Source: Escherichia coli
GTDB lineage: Bacteria > Pseudomonadota > Gammaproteobacteria > Enterobacterales > Enterobacteriaceae
Direction: 5' to 3' (one strand)
Assembly (NCBI RefSeq): GCF_002854065.1
Contig: NZ_CP024147.1
DNA length: 64,000 nucleotides
Position numbers and translations under genes: made by a program. Under the pieces are notes generated by a model that saw nothing but the letters and a program-made list of their open reading frames with translations, did not search any database and was not told the DNA's origin. How positions within the stretch are numbered: position 1 is the stretch's first letter; each line of letters begins with the position of its first letter. Shown here in pieces: positions 21,530 through 35,268 of the stretch.

Positions 21530-22417
21530 TTATCGGGTCATGTTGATGCCGGATGCTTTCTGCTCCAGCATACGTTTCGCCAAATCCACAATGACGGCTG
21601 CGGCTTCAACCGGCGGCGTGCCGCCCTGGTGAATGTTAGAGATACAGGTGCGATCGGCCTCAACGGTGGTCGCCATACGCGGCGAGTAAACGGCGTAGCA
21701 GGAGAGGCTTTCTGACTGACCCAACCCCGGACGTTCGCCCACCAGCAGGATCACTACTTTCGCGCCGAGGATCTCACCGATCTGATCTTCAATCTTCACG
21801 CGACCATAACGAACAAAGAATGGTGTACCGACTTTCAGCCCGGCCTGTTTCAGCCCCGCCATCAGCGGTGGCAGGATCTCTTCGTAGTTCACGGTGATCG
21901 CATCAGTTGACAGGCCATCAGAAATAACGACCTGTACGTCCGGATTAGCAACACACTGTGCTTTCAGCGCTTCAACAGCTTCTGCACACAGGCGGCGGCC
22001 CATATCCGGGCGAGTCAGGTAGAGATTTTTGTCGCTAATTTCAGAGCGTACTTCCAGCAAGCCCTGCGCTTTCACCCACTCTTCCGGCACTTCTTTAAGT
22101 ACGGTATCTTTCGAACGAGAGTGATCGGCCAGGAAACGCAGCAACGCCTGGGTACGCGGACGCGGACCGGCACGACCGGTACAAACGCGGGCCACGGTGC
22201 TGCGACGCAGTTCTGTTAACACATCCGCACGATGTGGGTTTTCAACACCAATCCACGCTTTTGCTTCCGCAGAACCTAAATCCAGCGCACAGCTTTCCGA
22301 GGTCACCGGTGCCGCACAGGTGGTAGTGGCGCACTTTGCTTCTGACGGCGCGGGGGCCGTTTGTCCCATTGACGCCATCACGCTGCGTACAATTTCTTCA
22401 ATCTGTTTTTGATCCAT
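21530..22417 (-). CDS. eutC: Ethanolamine ammonia-lyase small subunit
   Basis: 295-aa ORF downstream of eutB. Confidence 0.9.
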
Positions 22418-22437
22418 GATGTGTTATCTCCGCGTCA

Positions 22438-23799
22438 TCAGAAGAACAGTGACGGATCGCCCGCCCGTTTGATCAAGCGACCGTTTGCCATAATGCCCAT
22501 GCTTTCCAGCCAGCGTTCAAACTCCGGTGACGGGCGCAGGTTGAGTAACTGACGCACAGTGGCAGTGTCGTGGAAGGCGGTGGTCTGGTAGTTGAGCATG
22601 ATGTCATCGCCCAACGGCATCCCCATGATGTAATTGCAGCCTGCGGTGGCGAGCAGGATCATCAGGTTTTCGTTGAGGTTCTGGTCAGCGTCAGCGTGGT
22701 TGGTGTAACAGCAGTCACAGCCCATAGAGATGCCGCTCAGCTTGCCCATAAAGTGATCTTCTAAGCCCGCACGGATAATCTGGCGGTCGTTGTAGAGATA
22801 CTCCGGCCCAATAAAGCCGACCACGGTGTTGACGATAAACGGATCGTAATGACGCGCCAGCCCATAGTTACGTGCTTCCATCGTCACCTGGTCTGCGCCG
22901 AAGTTAGCGCCAGCGGATAGCGCTGAACCTTGTCCGGTTTCGAAGTAGAGGCAGTTTTCCCCGGCGATACGGTTGAACTCTGCACCCACTGCGCGCGCTT
23001 CGTCGAGCATCGCCAGTTCCACGCCAAACTCTTTCAGCCCTTTTTCACTGCCACAGATACTCTGGAAAATCAGCCCGCCTGGTGCGCCACGACGAATCGC
23101 TTCGATCTGGGTGGTGACGTGCGCCAGTACGCAGCCCTGAGTTGGGATGTTGAATTTGTCGATCACGCCATAGATGGTGTCCAGCACGCGGCTTAAGTTT
23201 TCCACGTCGTCAGTCACCGGGTTAACGCCGATCACCGCATCGCCCACCCCGAAGGAAAGCCCTTCGTAGATTTGCGCGGCGATACTTTGCACGTCGTCAC
23301 GGGTGTCATTTGGCTGCAAACGGGCGCTGAAGGTGCCCGGAATACCGATGGTGGTATTGGCCTTTTTGATTACCGGCATTTTCTTCGCGCCGTAGATCAG
23401 GTCCGCGTTGGAGCAAATCTTCGCTATCGCCGCGACCACTTCCGAGGTCAGCCCTTTGCGGGTAAAGGTAATGTCGTCCACGCTGGTTTCATCGCTCAGC
23501 ACATACTCACGCAGTTCGCTGATGCTCCAGTTTTTAATCTGGTTGTAGGCCGTTTCGTTAACATCGTCCTGAATCAGCCGCGTCACGCAGTCATCTTCAT
23601 AGGCAATCACCGGATTATTGCGGATGTCCGCTACGGTCATTTCCGACAACACCTGCTTTGCCGCCACGCGCTCCTGTGAACTTGCCGCTGCAACGCCTGC
23701 CAGCACATCCCCCGAACGCAGTTCGTTGGCTTTAGCCAGCACCTCTTTTACATCCTTAAACTGATATACATTGCCGAACAATGTGGTCTTTAGTTTCAT
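22438..23799 (-). CDS. eutB: Ethanolamine ammonia-lyase large subunit
   Basis: 453-aa ORF of the EutB family; first eut gene retained in this window. Confidence 0.9.
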   Translation of the reverse strand: MKLKTTLFGNVYQFKDVKEVLAKANELRSGDVLAGVAAASSQERVAAKQVLSEMTVADIRNNPVIAYEDDCVTRLIQDDVNETAYNQIKNWSISELREYVLSDETSVDDITFTRKGLTSEVVAAIAKICSNADLIYGAKKMPVIKKANTTIGIPGTFSARLQPNDTRDDVQSIAAQIYEGLSFGVGDAVIGVNPVTDDVENLSRVLDTIYGVIDKFNIPTQGCVLAHVTTQIEAIRRGAPGGLIFQSICGSEKGLKEFGVELAMLDEARAVGAEFNRIAGENCLYFETGQGSALSAGANFGADQVTMEARNYGLARHYDPFIVNTVVGFIGPEYLYNDRQIIRAGLEDHFMGKLSGISMGCDCCYTNHADADQNLNENLMILLATAGCNYIMGMPLGDDIMLNYQTTAFHDTATVRQLLNLRPSPEFERWLESMGIMANGRLIKRAGDPSLFF

Positions 23800-23986
23800 A
23801 AGTCGTTCCCTCAGGAAGAAGTGATGAGTAACATTTCTTCCAGCATTCGAACAATTCTATTTCATCGTTAGCCCTTGTCCTGTAAGGTAATTGTCTTAAC
23901 ACGCCCGTTATTCATCATGCCGAACGCAACCGAACGCGCCGGATACATGATCGGGTTTATCCAGTCGTTATGTCGAGGTATCCGGT

Positions 23987-25192
23987 TTGAGCAAGACACC
24001 ACTCACAGCAAAGGCCATCGCAGCCGCGCAGCCAAAAGACAAGCCCTATAAACTCACCGATTCACTGACGCCAGGACTGTTTTTGCTGGTGCATCCCAAC
24101 GGCAGCAAATACTGGCGATTCAGGTATTGGTTGAATAAACGAGAGTTTTTGCAGGCCATTGGTGTTTACCCGCTAATCACACTCAAAGAAGCACGCAGAC
24201 GCGCCACAGAGAGCCGATCTCTGATTGCTAATGGAATTAATCCAGTGGAAGAAGCACGCAAGGAAAAAGCCATTGATGCGCTCAACATGGCGGCAGGTTT
24301 TAAGACGGTAGCGGAGGACTGGCTGGCTACCAGGGTCAGCGGGTGGTCAGAGTCCTACACGAAACAGGTTAGATCGGCACTGGAAAAAGATGTTTACCCC
24401 GTGCTGGGGAAGCGGTCAATTGTCGATATAACGGCCCGTGACGTGCTGGAATTGCTTCAGAAGAAAGAGCGTACCGCACCGGAACAAGCCAGGAAGCTAC
24501 GCCAGCGTATCGGGGAGATCTTCAAATTTGCCGTTATCACCGAACTGGTGGCAAGAAATCCGGTTGCAGATCTGAACACAGCACTAAAAGCCCGCCGTCC
24601 GGGCCACAACGCATGGCTGCAAATTAACGAAATTCAGGCGTTCTATGAAGCACTTGAGAGAGCCGGGAGCGTCCAGATTCAGACGGCAATACGTTTGCTC
24701 ATATTGAGCGCTCTAAGGACGGTGGAACTGCGTAAAATGCGCTGGGAATGGGTTAACCTGGAAGACGCGATCATCACCCTACCCGCTGAAGTCATGAAGG
24801 CCCGTCGCCCGCATGTGGTCCCGCTATCACGGCAGGCGGTAGAGCTATTGCAGGACCAGTTTACTCGCACCGGATACAGCGCTTTCGTCTTCCCTGGTCG
24901 ATTCATGGATAAGCCCTTGTCTGCCAGCGCGATACTGAAAGCCCTGGAGCGTATCGGATACAAGTCGATAGCCACAGCACACGGCTGGCGTACAACGTTC
25001 AGCACGACGCTTAACGAGTCCGGCAGGTACTCACCAGACTGGATTGAAATCCAATTGGCCCACGTCCCGAAGGGTGTACGCGGTGTATATAACCAGGCGG
25101 CCTATCTCAAACAGCGCCGTCAAATGCTTCAGGACTACGCCGACGCCATTGATTCAATACTGGCTGGTGAAGGTAATCCGCTGGAACCGTGA
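23987..25192 (+). CDS. intZ: P4-type tyrosine integrase of a prophage remnant (TTG start)
   Basis: 401-aa ORF with N-terminal P4-integrase arm motif (KLTDSLTPGLFLLVHPNGSKYWRFRYW) and C-terminal tyrosine-recombinase core; K-12 has intZ next to eutB. Confidence 0.8.
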   Translation: MSKTPLTAKAIAAAQPKDKPYKLTDSLTPGLFLLVHPNGSKYWRFRYWLNKREFLQAIGVYPLITLKEARRRATESRSLIANGINPVEEARKEKAIDALNMAAGFKTVAEDWLATRVSGWSESYTKQVRSALEKDVYPVLGKRSIVDITARDVLELLQKKERTAPEQARKLRQRIGEIFKFAVITELVARNPVADLNTALKARRPGHNAWLQINEIQAFYEALERAGSVQIQTAIRLLILSALRTVELRKMRWEWVNLEDAIITLPAEVMKARRPHVVPLSRQAVELLQDQFTRTGYSAFVFPGRFMDKPLSASAILKALERIGYKSIATAHGWRTTFSTTLNESGRYSPDWIEIQLAHVPKGVRGVYNQAAYLKQRRQMLQDYADAIDSILAGEGNPLEP

Positions 25193-25198
25193 ACTATA

Positions 25199-25224
25199 AG
25201 GCCGGATTCGTCCGGCTTTTCTTT
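25199..25224 (+). terminator. Rho-independent terminator after the integrase gene
   Basis: Stem gccgga / tccggc with ttcg loop followed by ttttcttt. Confidence 0.5.
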
Positions 25225-25418
25225 CGCTAATTATTCCACTATTCCAATTAAGTGGAATAAATTATTCAATATCAAAAACTTACATCAATATTGCAACAAT
25301 AAAAACGGTGGCTTATGATCAGATCATGATTTTCGGTATGTGAACAGCAAAAACAAGAAGCCCGGAAAGGCGGCAACCAATCCGGGCGATATGGGAAAAG
25401 AGATTAGGAGGTTTCCCC

Positions 25419-26186
25419 ATGCGTAATAGTTTAGCAGTTCGCTTTAGCTTGCAGCAAGGCGAAGAATTATCACAGGAATATCAATTCATCAAATACGAAG
25501 AAGCGCCGGAACAGGTGCAAATAGCTTTTGATGATCAGCACTACGGCAACACTATCCGCTACGACGGTAAAAAATGGTTTCTCAATCCGGTAACAAATGC
25601 CATTCACGTATGTCAAATCATTACGCCAGTAAATAACAGCGCGGATAACGATTCGGCTATTGACGCTGAACTGGTGACAGAACCACTACCGCCACCGCCG
25701 CCAGTACAAGAAAGCGATGTAAAACCCGACGCCATCGATCTGACAGCAGAAGCCAGAGAGCGCAAACAACCGAAGCCGGAACAACCGCAAGCCAAGGATA
25801 ACAAACAGTGGCACGGTAACACGGCGTATCTGAATACGTTTGCTTGTCATCTTCATGAAGTGCTACCACAGGCCATCTATAGCACATGGTGCGACAAACA
25901 AACGGCGGCACACTTCCACCTGCTTTACGCGCTTTGCTACCTGGCAAGCTACGAAAACAAAGATGAAGGTATCGAGCTTGGCGAGGTGTTATATGGTGCT
26001 GAAAAGATCACAAAGGGCGGCGTAGTACCTGGTTTCCATATGGCCCGATCAACGTTCGATATCAAGATTAACGAGCTTGAACAGTGGGGATTAATCAAGG
26101 TAACACGAGGTAAGAAACGTAAGGACGGGCAAGGCAACTTGCCGAACAGTATCAAACTGAACTTTAAGCCGTACAGTTTAAAATAA
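25419..26186 (+). CDS. Hypothetical prophage protein, possibly a winged-helix replication-initiator-like protein
   Basis: 255-aa ORF behind a strong SD (aggagg); proline/acidic linker then a basic C-terminal segment (ELEQWGLIKVTRGKKRKDG) resembling winged-helix initiators; weak inference. Confidence 0.55.
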   Translation: MRNSLAVRFSLQQGEELSQEYQFIKYEEAPEQVQIAFDDQHYGNTIRYDGKKWFLNPVTNAIHVCQIITPVNNSADNDSAIDAELVTEPLPPPPPVQESDVKPDAIDLTAEARERKQPKPEQPQAKDNKQWHGNTAYLNTFACHLHEVLPQAIYSTWCDKQTAAHFHLLYALCYLASYENKDEGIELGEVLYGAEKITKGGVVPGFHMARSTFDIKINELEQWGLIKVTRGKKRKDGQGNLPNSIKLNFKPYSLK

Positions 26187-26194
26187 TCACACTA

Positions 26195-26220
26195 GGCGGG
26201 CAATGTTCCCGCCTTTTCTT
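26195..26220 (+). terminator. Rho-independent terminator after the 255-aa ORF
   Basis: Stem ggcggg / cccgcc with 7-nt loop followed by ttttctt. Confidence 0.5.
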
Positions 26221-26243
26221 TGCCTCAATCCTATAAAATTCAC

Positions 26244-26282
26244 ATCCCGAAAATCGGTATCTGGGTATCCCGAAAATCGGTA
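26244..26282. repeat. Two perfect 16-bp direct repeats ATCCCGAAAATCGGTA with 23-bp period
   Basis: Copies at 26244-26259 and 26267-26282, immediately followed by an AT-rich tract. Confidence 0.7.
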
Positions 26283-27668
26283 AGTAATAATAAGTATTAT
26301 CCTTAAAGGTAAAAACCATATAAGTAAGATCTATCTCTTCAAGAATGTATATATTCACTACGTTCATATATACATGAGAAGTTTCCCTTTCATGCAGTCA
26401 AAACTACATTCATCAGCATCGCTTTCTGCGCTCTCCTTCCCAGCAAGCTGGAAAGGCCCATTCACTCACGCACAACCTGCAAACCAGACCAACATACCAT
26501 CATGGCGATTCGTTCATGGGTAGCGCGGGTATATCTCAAAGGGTGATTTCTTCTTGGTGGACCTTCGGAAGACTTCGAGCAATCGCCAGCTCAAAAGACG
26601 GTCTGGCAGTGATGGTTATCATCGACAGCATTGAGCGCTACCGCGCCAACTTACAGCAGCAGGATAACTACCGAAGGAAAACCCACGCCGAAAGGGATTG
26701 ACTCACTGCAAAGCCAATGGGTTTTATCAGCGTATACAGACCAGACAGGAAACAGCAGCAAAGCAGCGTATAGCCAGGTGCAGACAGTACCATCACACAA
26801 CGCACAGCAGGCTGAGGTGAACACTCAAACAGGTTTATCCCCGCAGCCGACCAACGCAAACCATCCTGACCGTGCCAAATTCGAACGGAATGGTGCCTGT
26901 AACGCGATGAACACATATAACCGCTTACTTGCTTACCTGAAAACTTCACGTCGCCACAGAGCGATTTAGACGCATTATAATTGATGCGATTTCATTAAAT
27001 TTTCACCAGACACCGGAACAACGCCGATTAATCCAGGAATGGATTCATCGACATGCGCCGCTTTCCCCGCAGAACAGTCTCGCCTGAATAGTCTCACCAA
27101 CCAGATTTCAGATTGTCCAATCAGGCACGTCTCATTAAACGACAGAATGCGGCCTACAACGCCATCGCTGCCGATCTCGTTTGAGCAAGGTGCTGAGACT
27201 GAATGACGGACGCCCACTCCTCAGAGCTGAGGAATCGCCACACAGAACGCTGAGATCTGATATTACCGCCGCACCATTCCACGCCAGACGAATCAATCTA
27301 ATCACACCTGAGCAAATGCATTGCCAAAAATTAAGGCCGTCAGAATGCGTTATATTGCGTTTAAACGGCATCTAATTTTAATTAGTTTTGATGTGGTGAT
27401 TGCAGGCAAAAAAAATCCCGCCGGAGAGAGCGGGGAAGTGAAATCAATCGTTGTAGTTATAGATCACATTTTGAGTAAGGGTTACCAGCCCTTGAGTAAT
27501 ATTATCCCTGTATTACGTGAGATGCGCAATTATTTTTTGCTAATTAAAAGTTTTGTAAACATTACAGAATATCCCCTTTCCCTATATGGTAAAAGATGTG
27601 AAACAGGGACATGAGGAATATAATATTAAGTATCAACAGTAATGTTGGTCTTTAATTTCATTCAGGGC

Positions 27669-27710
27669 GCGGTGAGGGTTTTCCCATATTTTTCCTCACC
27701 GCTACTTTTT
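27669..27710 (+). terminator. Terminator/attenuator-like hairpin in the leader of the AlpA-like gene
   Basis: Perfect 9-bp stem gcggtgagg (27669-27677) / cctcaccgc (27694-27702), 16-nt loop, T5 run at 27706-27710. Confidence 0.4.
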
Positions 27711-27721
27711 GAGGTGAGAAC

Positions 27722-27913
27722 ATGAATGATAGCGAATTAATGACGGTGAGCGAGGTAGCCGCTTTATTCGGCGTTACCCGACGCACTATATTCCGCTGGC
27801 TGAACAAGATTAAAGGTTGGCCCGTTCCGGTTACTCCGGTCGGTGCACGAATTAAGTTTATCCGATCTGAGATTTTGGAATTCTATAAAAACAAAGGCGC
27901 TCGCCACCAATGA
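27722..27913 (+). CDS. AlpA/excisionase-family helix-turn-helix prophage regulator
   Basis: 63-aa ORF MNDSELMTVSEVAALFGVTRRTIFRWLNK; HTH typical of prophage AlpA/Xis-type regulators; SD gaggtga 6 nt upstream. Confidence 0.7.
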   Translation: MNDSELMTVSEVAALFGVTRRTIFRWLNKIKGWPVPVTPVGARIKFIRSEILEFYKNKGARHQ

Positions 27914-27989
27914 AAACAGCTACTGAGATTATCAAATAACCTATTGATTTAATAAGCTAGCTACCGCAATTTCTGAAGGAATAGGCAGC

Positions 27990-28316
27990 ATGAAAATCAA
28001 AGCAAACACAATTAAAGAAATAACATCAATCAAAGTAAAAGGAGCAGATGCCATGCATTCATTAGACAGTTATTTTCAGCGCACGACAGCCCCTAAATCA
28101 GCCGCCCAGGAACGCCGTGAGGAATTCCAGGAAAAAGTGATGCGTTCTGCTGATTATATTGCGGACAAGTTCGTGGAAACGGTTCGGCCACTTGTTGATG
28201 AAGTAGCTGATAAACTTCAGTCTGAAATGCCGGAAGACATGGAAGGCACTGCAAAGGCGCGACTCCTTTTTGAATTAAGTCGTCGTTTCGGCGTGTCAAT
28301 AAGCACTTTTAAATAA
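27990..28316 (+). CDS. Hypothetical prophage protein (108 aa; may start at internal Met)
   Basis: ORF in co-directional tight cassette; no recognisable motif. Confidence 0.45.
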   Translation: MKIKANTIKEITSIKVKGADAMHSLDSYFQRTTAPKSAAQERREEFQEKVMRSADYIADKFVETVRPLVDEVADKLQSEMPEDMEGTAKARLLFELSRRFGVSISTFK

Positions 28317-28333
28317 TCGGAGGAGAAAAGACA

Positions 28334-28876
28334 ATGGACGCATTTGATGTACTGACAAACAAAGGCGATGAACTGGTAGCACAGCGTGATAAAACCGCCA
28401 ACGAAGGGGAACGCGCACTGTTAAATAAGCAGATTAAAGCGATCCGTATGGCCCAGTTTAAATTAATCAGCAATGAAGTTATCGAAATAATTAAACCGCA
28501 GATCCCACAAATCGTTGCTGACGCTATTAAAGCCGCCGGACTGGAGAAACGCATTGCCGGGCTGAAAACGAACGCAGAGAAAATGGAGATGCACAAACAG
28601 AGCGGTGCTCCGACTCCGGATGAGTACTTCTCACCGGATGCTGAGTTTATGGCGCAGGTTGAGGAACGTCTGGGTAGCTGTCTCACCGAGGAACAGCGTC
28701 GCTATTTTGATGGAGTGGATAGTTCGGCAGGTATTGACCTGAACTCGTGTTTCGGTCGTGAAATTGAGCATTTTGATGCCGCCCCGTCTATGCCGGAGCC
28801 AGAACCAGAAATGGCCGCCGATCCTGAAGCTGAGCAACGGAAACGCGTATTCAATGCGATAGGGATTCGGTACTGA
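28334..28876 (+). CDS. Hypothetical prophage protein (180 aa) with acidic C-terminal tail
   Basis: Strong SD (ggagga) 7 nt upstream; predicted helical N-terminal half and PEPEPE-containing acidic tail; no recognisable motif. Confidence 0.55.
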   Translation: MDAFDVLTNKGDELVAQRDKTANEGERALLNKQIKAIRMAQFKLISNEVIEIIKPQIPQIVADAIKAAGLEKRIAGLKTNAEKMEMHKQSGAPTPDEYFSPDAEFMAQVEERLGSCLTEEQRRYFDGVDSSAGIDLNSCFGREIEHFDAAPSMPEPEPEMAADPEAEQRKRVFNAIGIRY

Positions 28877-28927
28877 TCGGATAAAAGAAAGCCGGGAATT
28901 ACCCCGGCTGACTTAACAATGTGACCA

Positions 28928-29302
28928 ATGAACAAATCGGACAAGACAAACAGGATAAGCAGTCTCGAAACAATGTTCGGGAACTATATTAGCACAAGTC
29001 CGGAGAAAATCATCATGTTGGCACTACGCATCATGCAGGGCATCGCTAAGACCCTCGCAGAACATGTCTTAGACCTGAAACATTCGCCACTGAGCAAACA
29101 GGCCATGAAGCGCCAAACGCTTCGTCTGTGGGCTGAATATTCGCTTGGAACTATCAATAAAATCATCGACATGAAATCGGGGCCGAGCAACCAGAGCGCG
29201 GAGGAAATGGAGTTCATCAGGCGTTTAATTCTCATTCGCAGAGATATTCATAGCCAGTTACACAGCGTGGGAATCGATATTAATGATGGGACGGGCGATT
29301 AA
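28928..29302 (+). CDS. Hypothetical prophage protein (124 aa)
   Basis: ORF in same cassette; basic, helical; no recognisable motif. Confidence 0.5.
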   Translation: MNKSDKTNRISSLETMFGNYISTSPEKIIMLALRIMQGIAKTLAEHVLDLKHSPLSKQAMKRQTLRLWAEYSLGTINKIIDMKSGPSNQSAEEMEFIRRLILIRRDIHSQLHSVGIDINDGTGD

Positions 29303-29340
29303 TTTTCGGACAAGTACAATGCGCGCGCGAGGAGCTGAAC

Positions 29341-29571
29341 ATGAAGCAAGATATTGCAGACAGGCTGGAGATACTCGAAGGCCAGCGGGCAGAAGCGAAA
29401 CAACTACGTAAGCAGGCCAGAAGAGCGCACAGGAACTACGAAGCAGAATCACTGACCGCTTTCATCAACTTCACAAACCGTTGCATCCAGGAGTGTTACA
29501 GGGAGGATGCAGAAAACTGGCTGGATTCATTGCCAGAACAGACTCTGCATGAACTGAACGGCGACCAGTAA
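29341..29571 (+). CDS. Hypothetical prophage protein (76 aa, coiled-coil-like)
   Basis: SD gaggag 7 nt upstream of ATG; Arg/Glu/Gln-rich helical sequence. Confidence 0.45.
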   Translation: MKQDIADRLEILEGQRAEAKQLRKQARRAHRNYEAESLTAFINFTNRCIQECYREDAENWLDSLPEQTLHELNGDQ

Positions 29572-29859
29572 ATAAATCCAGTACGTTTCCCGCAGTGCGC
29601 ATAACGTACATTATGTGAAAAACGATATGGATGTATATCAGTATTGATTTCATTGAGAAAACTGGGTTTTCAGTGGCACAGACAAAGAAGCATAGCTGAT
29701 ACAGCTTTATAAGCCATTGATTCTATTAAGTGATGTTTTTTGTGATTGGTTGAAGCAAACCAAAACACGATGCCACTGAAGCGTTAATAAACTGTTTCAA
29801 TGTGAAATTATTAGAGTAAAGAACAATTTGGAGGGTCCGCAAACGCGGATAACAATATC

Positions 29860-32040
29860 ATGAGTGGAAATCTCGGGACCATATACTACGAGGTCGATGC
29901 CCGCACTGGGAAACTTCTTATCGCGCAACAGCAGGCGGAAGAGGCGTTCGATCGCATTGAACGAGGAGCGCGGAAGGCTGATAGCGGCGTCAAAAAGTTA
30001 AATACGCAGATGACTAAAACATCAGCCGCAGTCAAAACCAACCTTTCCCCGGCAATCCGTAACGCATCATACCAGATCGCAGACCTTGCCACTCAATTGC
30101 AGATGGGCGGTAATGCGCTTCAGGCGTTCGCTGTGCAGGGTGCGCAGTTATTAGCTGGCTTTGGCACGATGGGCGCGGTAGCTGGCGCGGTGCTGGCTAT
30201 CGCTGGCGCTATGGGTGGAAGCCTGGCACAAGGCGCTGATAGTGCAGCCGGATCGGTTGAGTATCTGGACAAGGCGATCACCAAACTGAACGAGGTCATA
30301 GCTGTAAATGAACAGGGCGTGACGGTGATGAGTGATAGTTACGCCAGACTTTCTAAGGTTAACGCTGAAGTAGCGAAACAGATGCGGAACATGGCTGAAA
30401 TTCAGGCAATTGCAGCACTGCGTGACCTGAAAGAACAGGCAAGCCAGGCACAGGGGGAAATGTCGTCATTCTGGCGCAGCTTGCAGGGTGGTAAAGCTGA
30501 CGCAGCAGCAGCAGCACAGGCACTTGATGATCTTGGAATCACAACCAACGACTACAAAGAGGCGATAGCCATACTGAACGCCAATCAGCCGGATACACAG
30601 GCGCAAATGGCAACGCTAGCCAAATCCGTGATGTATGTTGGAGAGCAATATGATCTGACCAACCAGCAAGCATACGAATTTATACGCGCACTAAATAAGG
30701 CCGCGACAACGAAAACGCCGGAAGCCATGCAGGAGCTATCTGGCTTCATGCAGGTTTTGCTTCAGGATACCGAAAACGGTAACGAGGCATTCCGTGAACT
30801 GGCTATCAAATTCGTCGATGCACAAACCAAAGGCGCAATGTTGGAGGACCAACTAAACCGACTGAAAGGCGCTATTAGTGACGCAGCCACAGAAGCCAGA
30901 AACGCAAACTTTACCACTATGCTCAACACCGTCGCCGCACGCCTGGCAACCATTGAGCAAGGTTGGGAGGCAGGCGTTAGGATGCAGATGAAAGCCCAGG
31001 GCTACACTGAAGAGCAGATCGATGAATATGTGAACATGGAAACGGCGTACCGTGATGCAAAAGCCGCTTTGGACGAGAAGAACAAGGCCGACCGTGAAGC
31101 TATTGCGCTATCCAAACGCCAGGCCGCAGAAGCAGCCCGCAAGGCAAAACAGGAAGAAGCTGAAGCACAACGCAAGGCCAAACAGTTAGCCGCGCAGAAG
31201 GAGCAGGCAGGACGCTTTACGCAGCAAGTAATGACGGAATACCTGACGACCGTAGATCCGGCAACAGGCAAGGCGTTTAACCCTGCCGCACAAGTAGAAA
31301 TGCAGGAGCAGCAGAAGAAAGCGGCGCTGGATAAATACAGACAGTTGGGCGTCCTGGATGAACAGCAGTACCAGAACACGCTAACCGCCATCCAGAAAAC
31401 CGCGTCAATGCGCCGCCAGCAAATCATCAAAGACGAGGCCGACACGTTATTCAACAATCAGCAACAGTTGATCGGCACATTTGGCGATTTCTTCGGTGAA
31501 CTGTCTGGAGTCATAGCAGACGGTGCAGGTGAGCAAAACGCGGCATATCAAGCGCTATTTGCTGTGCAGAAGGGTTTTGTATTGGCATCAGCAGCTTTAA
31601 GCCTTCAGAAAGCGCTTGCTGAGGCAAACGCCTTGCCTTTCCCGGCTAATCTTCCGGCCTATGCGCAAGCTATGTCAGCAGGTACGCAGATCATTTCAGC
31701 TATTCGTGGAATAGCTTTCGGTGGCGGACGCTACAACGGCGGCGCGGTTGGTGCTGGCAACCTGTACCGCGTGGGTGAACACGGTAAGCCTGAGATATTC
31801 AAGGCGAACAATGGCAGCCAGTACATGATCCCAGGTGATAACGGTCGCGTGATAAGTAATCGTGACATTGGCGGCGGTGGCGGCGTAACAATCAACAGCC
31901 CGATCACCATTAACACTACGAATGGCTTCAGTGATGAAGACTCAAGGCGTCTTGAGGAAGCGATGAAGCGCGTAGCTATGGGCGTTTGCAGGCAGGAGTC
32001 AACCAGACCGGGAGGAATGTTAGCCCCGCGCCGTCGTTAA
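29860..32040 (+). CDS. Phage tail tape-measure-like protein
   Basis: 726-aa Ala/Gln-rich mostly helical ORF with glycine-rich hydrophobic N-terminal segment, long coiled-coil region (AEAARKAKQEEAEAQRKAKQLAAQKEQ) and C-terminal Gly-rich motif GGGRYNGGAVGAGNLYRVGEHG resembling the lambda gpH C-terminus as recalled. Confidence 0.65.
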   Translation: MSGNLGTIYYEVDARTGKLLIAQQQAEEAFDRIERGARKADSGVKKLNTQMTKTSAAVKTNLSPAIRNASYQIADLATQLQMGGNALQAFAVQGAQLLAGFGTMGAVAGAVLAIAGAMGGSLAQGADSAAGSVEYLDKAITKLNEVIAVNEQGVTVMSDSYARLSKVNAEVAKQMRNMAEIQAIAALRDLKEQASQAQGEMSSFWRSLQGGKADAAAAAQALDDLGITTNDYKEAIAILNANQPDTQAQMATLAKSVMYVGEQYDLTNQQAYEFIRALNKAATTKTPEAMQELSGFMQVLLQDTENGNEAFRELAIKFVDAQTKGAMLEDQLNRLKGAISDAATEARNANFTTMLNTVAARLATIEQGWEAGVRMQMKAQGYTEEQIDEYVNMETAYRDAKAALDEKNKADREAIALSKRQAAEAARKAKQEEAEAQRKAKQLAAQKEQAGRFTQQVMTEYLTTVDPATGKAFNPAAQVEMQEQQKKAALDKYRQLGVLDEQQYQNTLTAIQKTASMRRQQIIKDEADTLFNNQQQLIGTFGDFFGELSGVIADGAGEQNAAYQALFAVQKGFVLASAALSLQKALAEANALPFPANLPAYAQAMSAGTQIISAIRGIAFGGGRYNGGAVGAGNLYRVGEHGKPEIFKANNGSQYMIPGDNGRVISNRDIGGGGGVTINSPITINTTNGFSDEDSRRLEEAMKRVAMGVCRQESTRPGGMLAPRRR

Positions 32041-32163
32041 CCAAATCCCACGCCAGGGGAACAGACTGGCGGACCTTCAAAGACGGTCGCACACCGTGTT
32101 TGACATAATTTATTGTTTTTTGCTTGCTCTTATTATTGCAGCCGTTAGGGTAATGACTCCAAC

Positions 32164-32667
32164 TTATTGATAGTGTTTTATGTTCAGATAATGCCCGATG
32201 ACTTTGTCATGCAGCTCCACCGATTTTGAGAACGACAGCGACTTCCGTCCCAGCCGTGCCAGGTGCTGCCTCAGATTCAGGTTATGCCGCTCAATTCGCT
32301 GCGTATATCGCTTGCTGATTACGTGCAGCTTTCCCTTCAGGCGGGATTCATACAGCGGCCAGCCATCCGTCATCCATATCACCACGTCAAAGGGTGACAG
32401 CAGGCTCATAAGACGCCCCAGCGTCGCCATAGTGCGTTCACCGAATACGTGCGCAACAACCGTCTTCCGGAGACTGTCATACGCGTAAAACAGCCAGCGC
32501 TGGCGCGATTTAGCCCCGACGTATCCCCACTGTTCGTCCATTTCCGCGCAGACGATGACGTCACTGCCCGGCTGTATGCGCGAGGTTACCGACTGCGGCC
32601 TGAGTTTTTTAAATGGCGGAAAATCGTGTTGAGGCCAACGCCCATAATGCGGGCGGTTGCCCGGCAT
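32164..32667 (-). CDS. insB: IS1 InsB reading frame (expressed as InsAB transposase by -1 frameshift)
   Basis: 167-aa ORF overlapping the insA 3-prime end in the -1 frame, classic IS1 organisation. Confidence 0.85.
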
Positions 32668-32861
32668 CCAACGCCATTCATGGCCATATCAATGATTTTC
32701 TGGTGCGTACCGGGTTGAGAAGCGGTGTAAGTGAACTGCAGTTGCCATGTTTTACGGCAGTGAGAGCAGAGATAGCGCTGATGTCCGGCAGTGCTTTTGC
32801 CGTTACGCACCACCCCGTCAGTAGCTGAACAGGAGGGACAGCTGATAGAAACAGAAGCCAC
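32586..32861 (-). CDS. insA: IS1 InsA protein
   Basis: 91-aa [46 protein letters not shown] with zinc-finger cysteines. Confidence 0.9.
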
Positions 32862-32988
32862 TGGAGCACCTCAAAAACACCATCATACACTAAATCAGTA
32901 AGTTGGCAGCATCACCAGCTTTACTAATATATTGCAGCTGGACCGCTTACCCTGAATATTCAGGGTAAGCGTGAGAGTTAAAAAAGAA

Positions 32989-35268
32989 TTACAGCGGTTG
33001 GGTTTGCGCTTCAACCACGGCCAGCGCCACCATGTTGACGATACGACGTACCGATGCGATCGGCGTTAACACGTGAACCGGTTTCGCCACGCCCATCAGC
33101 ACCGGACCGACAGTCACACCTTCCGAGCTGGAAACGCGCAGTAAGTTGTAACTAATGCGGGCAGCTTCCATGTTTGGCATTACCAGAATATTGGCAGAAC
33201 CTTTCAAAGGGCTGTCCGGCATACGGTCGTTGCGAATCGCTTCCACCAGCGCTGCATCGCCGTGCATTTCACCATCAATCATCAGTTCTGGCGCACGTTC
33301 CCTGACCAGTTCCAGCGCCTGACGCATTTTGCTCGACGACGGACAGTCAGAAGAACCAAAGTTGGAGTGCGACAACAGAGCAACGCGCGGCTCAATACCA
33401 AAACGACGGACAGTTTCTGCCGCCATCAAGGTGATCTCCGCCAGCTCTTCTGCGTCTGGTTCGTCATTGACGTAGGTATCGGCAATAAAGGTGTTACCAC
33501 TCGGCAGCAGCAGCGCGTTCATTGCACCTGCGGTGTGAACGCCATCGCGATAACCAAAGACATTTTTCACCACGCTAAAATGTTCATGATAATCACCCAC
33601 CGTACCGCAAATCATTGCATCGGCTTCGCCACGCTGAACCATGATCGCGCCGATCACTGTCGGGTTACTGATCAACGCCCGCTGCGCCTGTTCCTGAGTG
33701 ACGCCGCGACGCTTCATGATCTGGAAGTATTCGGTCCAGTACTCTTTAAAGCGCGGATCGGATTCGTTATTGACGATCTCAAAATCAACGCCCGCTTTGA
33801 TCTGCAAGCCCAGTTTCTGAATGCGCATTTCGATCACGTTCGGACGACCGATAAGGATCGGTTTCGCCAGTCCCAGCGTTACCAGTTCCTGAGTGGCATG
33901 TAGAACGCGCGCCTCTTCCCCTTCCGGCAGAACTACGCGCTTCGGCGCTTTGCGAGCCTGGGAGAAAATCGGCTTCATAAACAGGTTGGTTTTGTAAACG
34001 AACTCAGTCAGCTTGTCGATGTAGACGTCGAAATCAGCAATCGGACGCGTCGCCACGCCCGACTCCATCGCCGCTTTCGCGACCGCAGGAGCGATCTTAA
34101 CGATCAAGCGCGGATCAAACGGTTTTGGAATGATGTATTCCGGACCAAAGCTCAGATCCTGATCGCCATACGCTGAAGCCACCACTTCGCTCTGTTCCGC
34201 ATGGGCCAGTTCTGCAATCGCGCGTACCGCCGCCAGTTTCATCTCTTCGTTGATGGCGGTTGCGCCAACGTCCAGCGCGCCACGGAAGATGAACGGGAAG
34301 CAAAGGACGTTGTTGACCTGGTTTGGATAGTCAGAACGACCGGTGCAGATGATGGCATCCGGACGCACTTCTTTCGCCAGCGGCGGCAGAATTTCCGGTT
34401 CCGGGTTCGCCAGCGCCAGGATCATTGGCGCTCGAGCCATTTTCTTCACCATTTCCTGGGTCAGCACTTTCGGGCCGGAACAGCCGAGGAAAATATCCGC
34501 GCCTTCAATCACATCATCGAGGGTACGTTTGCCGTCATCCACTACCGCATATGCGGCTTTGGTTTCCGCCATGTTTGGCTCACGGCCCTGATAGATAACG
34601 CCTTTTGAATCGCAAACCACGATGTTATGTTTTTGCAGACCCAGCGCGACCAGCAGGTTCATACAGGCGATTGCTGCAGCACCCGCGCCGGAAACCACCA
34701 TACGCACGTCAGAGATGTTTTTCTCCACCACGCGCAAGCCGTTGAGGATGGCGGCAGTGCTGATGATTGCCGTGCCGTGCTGATCGTCGTGGAATACCGG
34801 AATATTCATCCGCTCGCGCAGTTTCTGTTCAATATAGAAACATTCTGGCGCTTTAATGTCTTCGAGGTTGATTCCGCCGAAGGTCGGTTCGAGCGCAGCG
34901 ACGACTTCAATAAATTTGTCCGGGTCGAGTTCATCAACTTCAATGTCAAATACATCAATCCCGGCGAATTTCTTAAACAGAACGCCCTTGCCTTCCATCA
35001 CCGGTTTGCCTGCCAGCGCGCCAATGTTGCCTAACCCCAGCACCGCCGTACCGTTAGAGATCACCGCCACCAGGTTACCGCGCGCGGTATATTTGTAGGC
35101 TTTTAACGGGTCTTTTTCGATTTCAAGACAAGGTGCGGCAACGCCTGGTGAGTAGGCCAGCGCCAGATCGCGCTGCGTTGCCAGAGGCTTGGTTGGAGAA
35201 ACCTGGATTTTCCCTGGAACTGGAAATTCATGGAAATCAAGTGCACTTTGTTTTAACTGGTCATCCAT
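32989..35268 (-). CDS. maeB: NADP-dependent malic enzyme
   Basis: 759-aa ORF with N-terminal malic enzyme domain and C-terminal phosphotransacetylase-like domain. Confidence 0.95.

Follow-up and report, generated by a model that had tools for sequence, protein, structure and literature searches.

An intact IS1 element in the window (the whole 64-kb stretch of E. coli DNA analyzed here) stands exactly at the junction of a deletion that runs from a CPZ-55-like prophage to the eutS-maeB spacer. As reference we used E. coli 13TMH22 (locus L001), which is without IS1 at this locus. The gene order in 13TMH22 is hemF, eutR-K-L-C-B, intZ, a CPZ-like element ending in yffS, eutA-H-G-J-E-N-M-D-T-Q-P-S and maeB. 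Left of IS1 the window aligns to 13TMH22 through position 22000, and right of IS1 it aligns from position 35028 in the same orientation, with IS1 taking the place of the segment in between (22001-35027, 13,027 bp). A comparison of both flanks, which the initial annotation had proposed, thus places each of them natively on its own side of IS1. In 13TMH22 they are colinear, at a distance of 13,027 bp; therefore, the junction is a deletion, with exact endpoints and an intact IS1 between them. Flanks that are colinear but not contiguous in the reference, with an intact IS exactly where they meet, are one mark of an adjacent deletion. This result supports the initial reading of the locus as an IS1-mediated adjacent deletion or a recombination between two IS1 copies, and not a simple insertion. 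Coordinates of the main features are collected in Table 1.

Table 1. Features around the IS1 junction, in window coordinates.
Feature	Position	Strand	Basis or remark
CPZ-55-like integrated element remnant, intZ to just beyond the tape-measure-like ORF	23987..32148	+	right end cut off by the deletion
Tape-measure-like ORF, 726 aa	29860-32040	+	PHROG 1538, E 7e-103; PHROG 1107, E 7e-58
Left 9-bp flank, agccgttag	32140..32148		deletion endpoint within the CPZ-55-like prophage; 13TMH22 (L001) 21992-22000
Complete IS1 (IS1B-like), 768 bp	32149..32916	-	transposase genes on the minus strand; both inverted repeats found
IRR end of IS1	32149..32171	+	exact match to GGTAATGACTCCAACTTATTGAT; adjoins prophage DNA
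insB frame, 167 codons	32164..32667	-	ORF list and translation
insA, 91 codons	32586..32861	-	ORF list and translation
A6C frameshift motif AAAAAAC	32604-32610		IS1 position 307
IRL end of IS1	32894..32916	-	exact match to GGTGATGCTGCCAACTTACTGAT (reverse complement); adjoins the eutS-maeB spacer
Right 9-bp flank, agctttact	32917..32925		eutS-maeB spacer, probable original IS1 target; 13TMH22 (L001) 35028-35036
maeB, intact, directly right of IS1	32989..35268	-	ORF list and annotation in relatives

The left endpoint of the deletion falls in the prophage between eutB and eutA, and the right endpoint falls in the eutS-maeB spacer, which has a GC content of 33%. Missing from the window are the eut promoter region, eutS-P-Q-T-D-M-N-E-J-G-H-A, and the right end of the prophage, with yffS and three further ORFs. 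Twelve of the seventeen eut genes are absent from the locus, and eutBCLKR are kept. Few E. coli genomes have lost most of the eut operon. The segment from eutG to eutE was matched in 5,410 of 5,426 complete E. coli genomes, leaving 16 without a match, in agreement with a published account that places eut in the E. coli core genome (bioRxiv 10.1101/2024.03.04.583360).

The surviving part of the CPZ-55-like element begins with intZ, annotated in relatives, whose integrase domain gave an NCBIfam match below the curated cut-off. The 726-aa ORF near the truncated end matched no NCBIfam model. It looks like an isolated remnant, with no further tail genes evident nearby, and four small prophage ORFs had no match in PHROG. 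By megablast, the left 2 kb are present in only 82 of the 5,426 complete E. coli genomes, as a hypothetical protein in an integrated element. Within the element, 1.5 kb (window 25206-26705) did not align to 13TMH22, and the adjacent parts align at 94% and 99.5%; the element is therefore mosaic. The unaligned portion covers most of a 255-aa ORF (25419-26186) that has no PHROG match. The same position is occupied in K-12 (BW25113) by CPZ-55, likewise an intZ-bearing element between eutB and eutA (bioRxiv 10.1101/2024.03.04.583360). K-12, however, keeps all eut genes, whereas the window is without the right end of the element and the twelve upstream eut genes. The window element also differs from K-12 CPZ-55 in carrying the tape-measure-like ORF.

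Both transposase frames (insA and insB), the A6C motif and the two inverted repeats are present, so the window IS1 is intact. Each canonical IS1 end sequence has a single exact match in the 64-kb window, where the chance expectation is 0, and a repeat finder scored the 23-nt inverted arms as 78% complementary. A modelled InsAB' fusion, produced by a -1 frameshift at A6C, is 232 aa long and scored 241.9 bits against the NCBIfam model NF033558, 'IS1 family transposase' (cut-off 100). In length, inverted repeats, reading frames and transposase model the element agrees with the IS1 family, and the 8-9-bp target duplication is the only family feature that it lacks. Such a duplication is the footprint of an insertion event and not a defining property of the element. 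The window copy is 99.87% identical to the copy in two related genomes, CUWW06 and 100416, where it is annotated as 'IS1-like element IS1B family transposase'. The sole base separating them, at 32473, lies in codon 65 of InsB and reads AGT (Ser) in the window and AGG (Arg) in the relatives. It sits in the left third of IS1, and one such site can mean either a point mutation or the trace of a second IS1 copy.

A promoter-like site at 32903-32930 (+), with its -35 (TTGGCA) within the IS1 end and its -10 (TAATAT) in flanking DNA, faces outward and antisense to maeB. This is a consensus match only; the region from 31900 to 33100 holds two promoter-like sites, a number no greater than chance and no higher than in shuffles. 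No terminators were called in a scan of the same region, and a 14+14 palindrome downstream of maeB (32944-32971) did not satisfy the terminator pattern. An Rfam scan over the whole window returned zero matches.

The claim that the 9-bp flanks of IS1, agccgttag and agctttact, differ was borne out. A scripted search for direct repeats of 4 to 14 bp across the IS1 ends was negative at every length. The two flanks have the same base at 4 of 9 positions, no more than chance would give. The left flank lies 108 bp past the stop of the 726-aa ORF, and the right flank starts 72 bp from the maeB stop. A decayed duplication was ruled out, since both flanks are identical to the IS1-free 13TMH22, each at its own locus. 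A target preference that would produce the mismatch without a deletion was also ruled out, the flanks being 13 kb apart in 13TMH22. Inversion was rejected as well, as both flanks are in the reference orientation. Unlike flanks would be the default expectation for random 9-mers, and the mismatch is informative here because simple IS1 insertions do leave duplications.

That simple insertions do so was confirmed at this same spacer. IS1 lies in or near the 290-bp eutS-maeB spacer in 41 of 5,426 complete genomes. As a control, the 150-bp flanks of IS1 at 18 such loci were mapped onto 13TMH22; the query for these loci demanded IS1 in the window's orientation beside the maeB end, and could not pick up other orientations or deletions that run into maeB or rightwards. 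Where the flanks overlap in 13TMH22, marking a simple insertion (A30, E41, STO_Bone1B, PO06101, 503829, HCP4S3_I4, AVS0051, strain 61, 300081, PRO_A-1374, GF124.3 and ET745), a duplication was found in 12/12 copies, of 9 bp in eight and 8 bp in four. Where the flanks are non-contiguous, a duplication was found in 0/6 copies: the window (13,027 bp missing), CUWW06 (13,224 bp), 100416 (16,729 bp), GDSC2239PM (4,484 bp), ZH177 (1,376 bp) and O177:H21 (775 bp). Several spacer copies of IS1 have eaten into eut. The sampled junctions occupy 11 distinct positions, from 34844 to 35105 in 13TMH22 coordinates, and the spacer is thus a recurrent IS1 target.

Two of the loci show other outcomes. In O177:H21 and 13 other genomes, the right junction of an IS1B lies 5 bp inside the maeB 3' end (13TMH22 35105), and the left junction lies in eutP. 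In this 14-genome group maeB is still annotated as full-length, so IS1 sequence must supply its final codons and stop. In WS4437A-1 (L012, NZ_CP035822.1, 2256-4250), two IS1 copies in inverted orientation surround an inverted eutS, and within each flank pair one 9-mer is the reverse complement of the other (taacttttg/caaaagtta and cacagcgaa/ttcgctgtg). The arrangement is an inversion product of IS1 activity, or else of IS1-IS1 recombination, at the locus.

The relatives CUWW06 and 100416 carry the same junction in altered form. Most of a query spanning the window junction was covered in a single genome, CUWW06, with 100% identity over the aligned 95% and a 197-bp gap; the exact left junction of the window was in none of the complete genomes searched. 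Both relatives have the same IS1 and the same right junction, agctttact at 72 bp from maeB, which was found in no other of the 5,426 genomes. In 13TMH22 coordinates the right junction is at 35028 in all three, and the left junction is at 22000 in the window, 21803 in CUWW06 (flank caaggcgtc) and 18298 in 100416 (flank agcgatccg). The window therefore has the shallowest endpoint, and the deletion reaches deeper into the prophage by 197 bp in CUWW06 and by 3,702 bp in 100416. With one junction constant and the other variable among relatives, the three genomes are a nested, one-ended deletion series.

The relatives are 99.95-99.98% identical to the window over the aligned parts of the 64 kb, within which 14 positions separate the window from CUWW06 and 24 separate it from 100416. 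Nine of the differences are common to both relatives (8033, 21503, 22472, 23971, 26926, 32473, 46062, 55145 and 58075). At eight of these nine sites the relatives have G or C and the window has A or T. Three of the nine could be polarized with 13TMH22, and all three changed only in the window, so that the nine shared differences look private to the window. The private branch is longer for the window than for CUWW06, with its 3 private SNPs. Two other sites, 24450 and 27800, place the window with CUWW06 in a weakly supported tree. On that tree, no fewer than three events are required for the three endpoints: one primary deletion and two independent extensions, or three independent deletions from an undeleted ancestor. 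The shared right and variable left junctions mark the right end as the anchor, from which leftward deletions were made or extended at least three times.

The clone's IS1 population appears to be expanded, with at least 39-40 IS1-matching places per genome in CUWW06 and 100416 versus a median of 10 across genomes. CUWW06 shows a further deletion in the clone that is associated with another IS (L014 28551-29778; window from about 60630 onward): IS26 lies in the hyf operon, and hyfC, hyfD and part of hyfE are missing. The hyf region is intact in the window and in 100416.

An intact IS with unrelated flanks can arise by two classical routes, intramolecular replicative transposition (adjacent deletion) and homologous recombination between direct copies. 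Adjacent deletions promoted by IS1 were reportedly described by Reif and Saedler in 1975 for the gal region of E. coli K-12, under laboratory selection. Like those classical deletions, the one in the window starts exactly at one end of a retained, intact IS1, leaves one flank fixed while the other endpoint varies, and lacks a duplication. Unlike them, it occurs in natural isolates, with no precursor insertion observed. Of the IS-associated deletions in the E. coli long-term evolution experiment, 14/14 were without duplications, and they often enlarged over time; missing duplications have been ascribed to IS-IS recombination or adjacent deletion (PMC11708052). The IS150 adjacent deletions of that E. 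coli B experiment also lie beside a resident IS, lack duplications and grow stepwise; IS150, however, belongs to the IS3 family, and its precursor insertion was seen directly in the time series (PMC11708052), whereas the element here is IS1 and the precursor is inferred. The missing duplication in the window is the ordinary footprint of an IS1-driven deletion, a textbook phenomenon that calls for no new mechanism. No specific report of an IS1 deletion of eut beside maeB came up in the literature searched.

Of the two routes offered by the initial annotation, adjacent deletion is favored because the relatives share the right junction and have deeper left junctions. The most likely history, which we consider probable, is insertion of IS1 in the eutS-maeB spacer followed by adjacent deletion through intramolecular transposition. 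IS1 would first have inserted in the AT-rich spacer, and the right flank agctttact that is kept today would be one copy of its target. The same IS1 would then have attacked a site on the same chromosome from its IRR end by intramolecular replicative transposition. IS1 would have stayed in place, with loss of all DNA up to the new target, 13,027 bp as measured on 13TMH22. The expected product keeps one original flank, has its other IS end joined to new DNA and carries no duplication. IRR would accordingly be the end from which the deletion extends and IRL the fixed end. For this locus we infer in which order the events took place, which way the deletion ran, and that it depended on transposase rather than on homologous recombination.

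The proposed precursor, with IS1 at the same site, an agctttact duplication and intact eutS, was sought with a constructed 500-bp query, which had no exact match in the 5,426 complete genomes. The full-coverage matches to this query were 16 genomes with IS1 beside an intact eutS, all at other positions. Because a precursor genome was not found, the first insertion step is reconstructed and not observed. A search for an IS1 copy carrying one of the two flanks together with a matching duplication, as the initial annotation had suggested, likewise came back empty across the 5,426 complete E. coli genomes.

The same structure could have come from two direct IS1 copies, one in the prophage with an agccgttag duplication and one in the spacer with an agctttact duplication, that recombined, excised the 13 kb and left a hybrid IS1. 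Recombination of this kind yields exactly what is observed, and the window alone cannot separate it from adjacent deletion. Substrates are plentiful, given the many IS1-matching places in the lineage, the difference at 32473 from the relatives' copy is what a hybrid element might show, and IS1-IS1 recombination has been named as a common cause of missing duplications (PMC11708052). However, none of the 5,426 genomes matched 80% or more of a constructed query for IS1 at the prophage site (IS1 end, agccgttag and the prophage DNA downstream), and the change at 32473 fits the other private GC-to-AT changes of the window. CUWW06 and 100416, with steps of 197 bp and 3.7 kb, would each need an extra, correctly oriented insertion and a further recombination, and the 197-bp step in particular is hard to get by recombining two IS1 copies. 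We therefore regard two-copy recombination as unlikely, though it may account for the first step.

Adjacent deletion could also have run the other way, with IS1 first in the prophage at agccgttag and then a rightward deletion to the spacer. The window alone does not separate the two directions, and the prophage target region is also AT-rich, at 39% GC over 100 bp. It is the right junction, however, that all three related genomes share, and the left that varies. The spacer is repeatedly hit and no IS1 was found at the prophage site in the 5,426 genomes, which favors a deletion anchored on the maeB side and makes a prophage-side origin improbable.

IS1 could instead have been captured at a chromosome break while an unrelated deletion formed, in one event that leaves no duplication and needs no prior IS1 at either end. 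Such a mechanism has been proposed for some IS movements (PMC11708052), and no ancestor with IS1 at either site was found. The proposal is unproven, nothing supports it for IS1, and it leaves the shared exact junction and the variable other junction in the relatives unexplained; we consider it very improbable. Least credible is an assembly artefact in which a collapsed IS1 repeat misjoined two contigs and the 13-kb segment is really still present: the lineage has many IS1 copies and no complete genome searched repeats the exact left junction of the window, but two independently assembled complete genomes have the prophage-IS1-maeB join with the same right junction, and a random misjoin would not bring together flanks that are colinear and only 13 kb apart in 13TMH22.

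For the strain itself, the gene content of the locus predicts that it is likely unable to build or run the Eut ethanolamine microcompartment pathway. The CPZ-55-like remnant, shorn of its right end, can likely no longer excise and would be locked in place. The locus is a natural illustration of an IS eroding a core operon, and the nested series in three natural isolates, together with a spacer prone to IS1, lends it mild interest. Tentatively, the eutS-maeB spacer may be a natural IS1 hot spot that seeds stepwise, one-ended deletions, by which E. coli lineages lose the near-universal eut operon, possibly because selection in some niches acts against the Eut microcompartment. If the spacer is such a hot spot, the lineage of the window would be a series caught in the act, with three successive endpoints.
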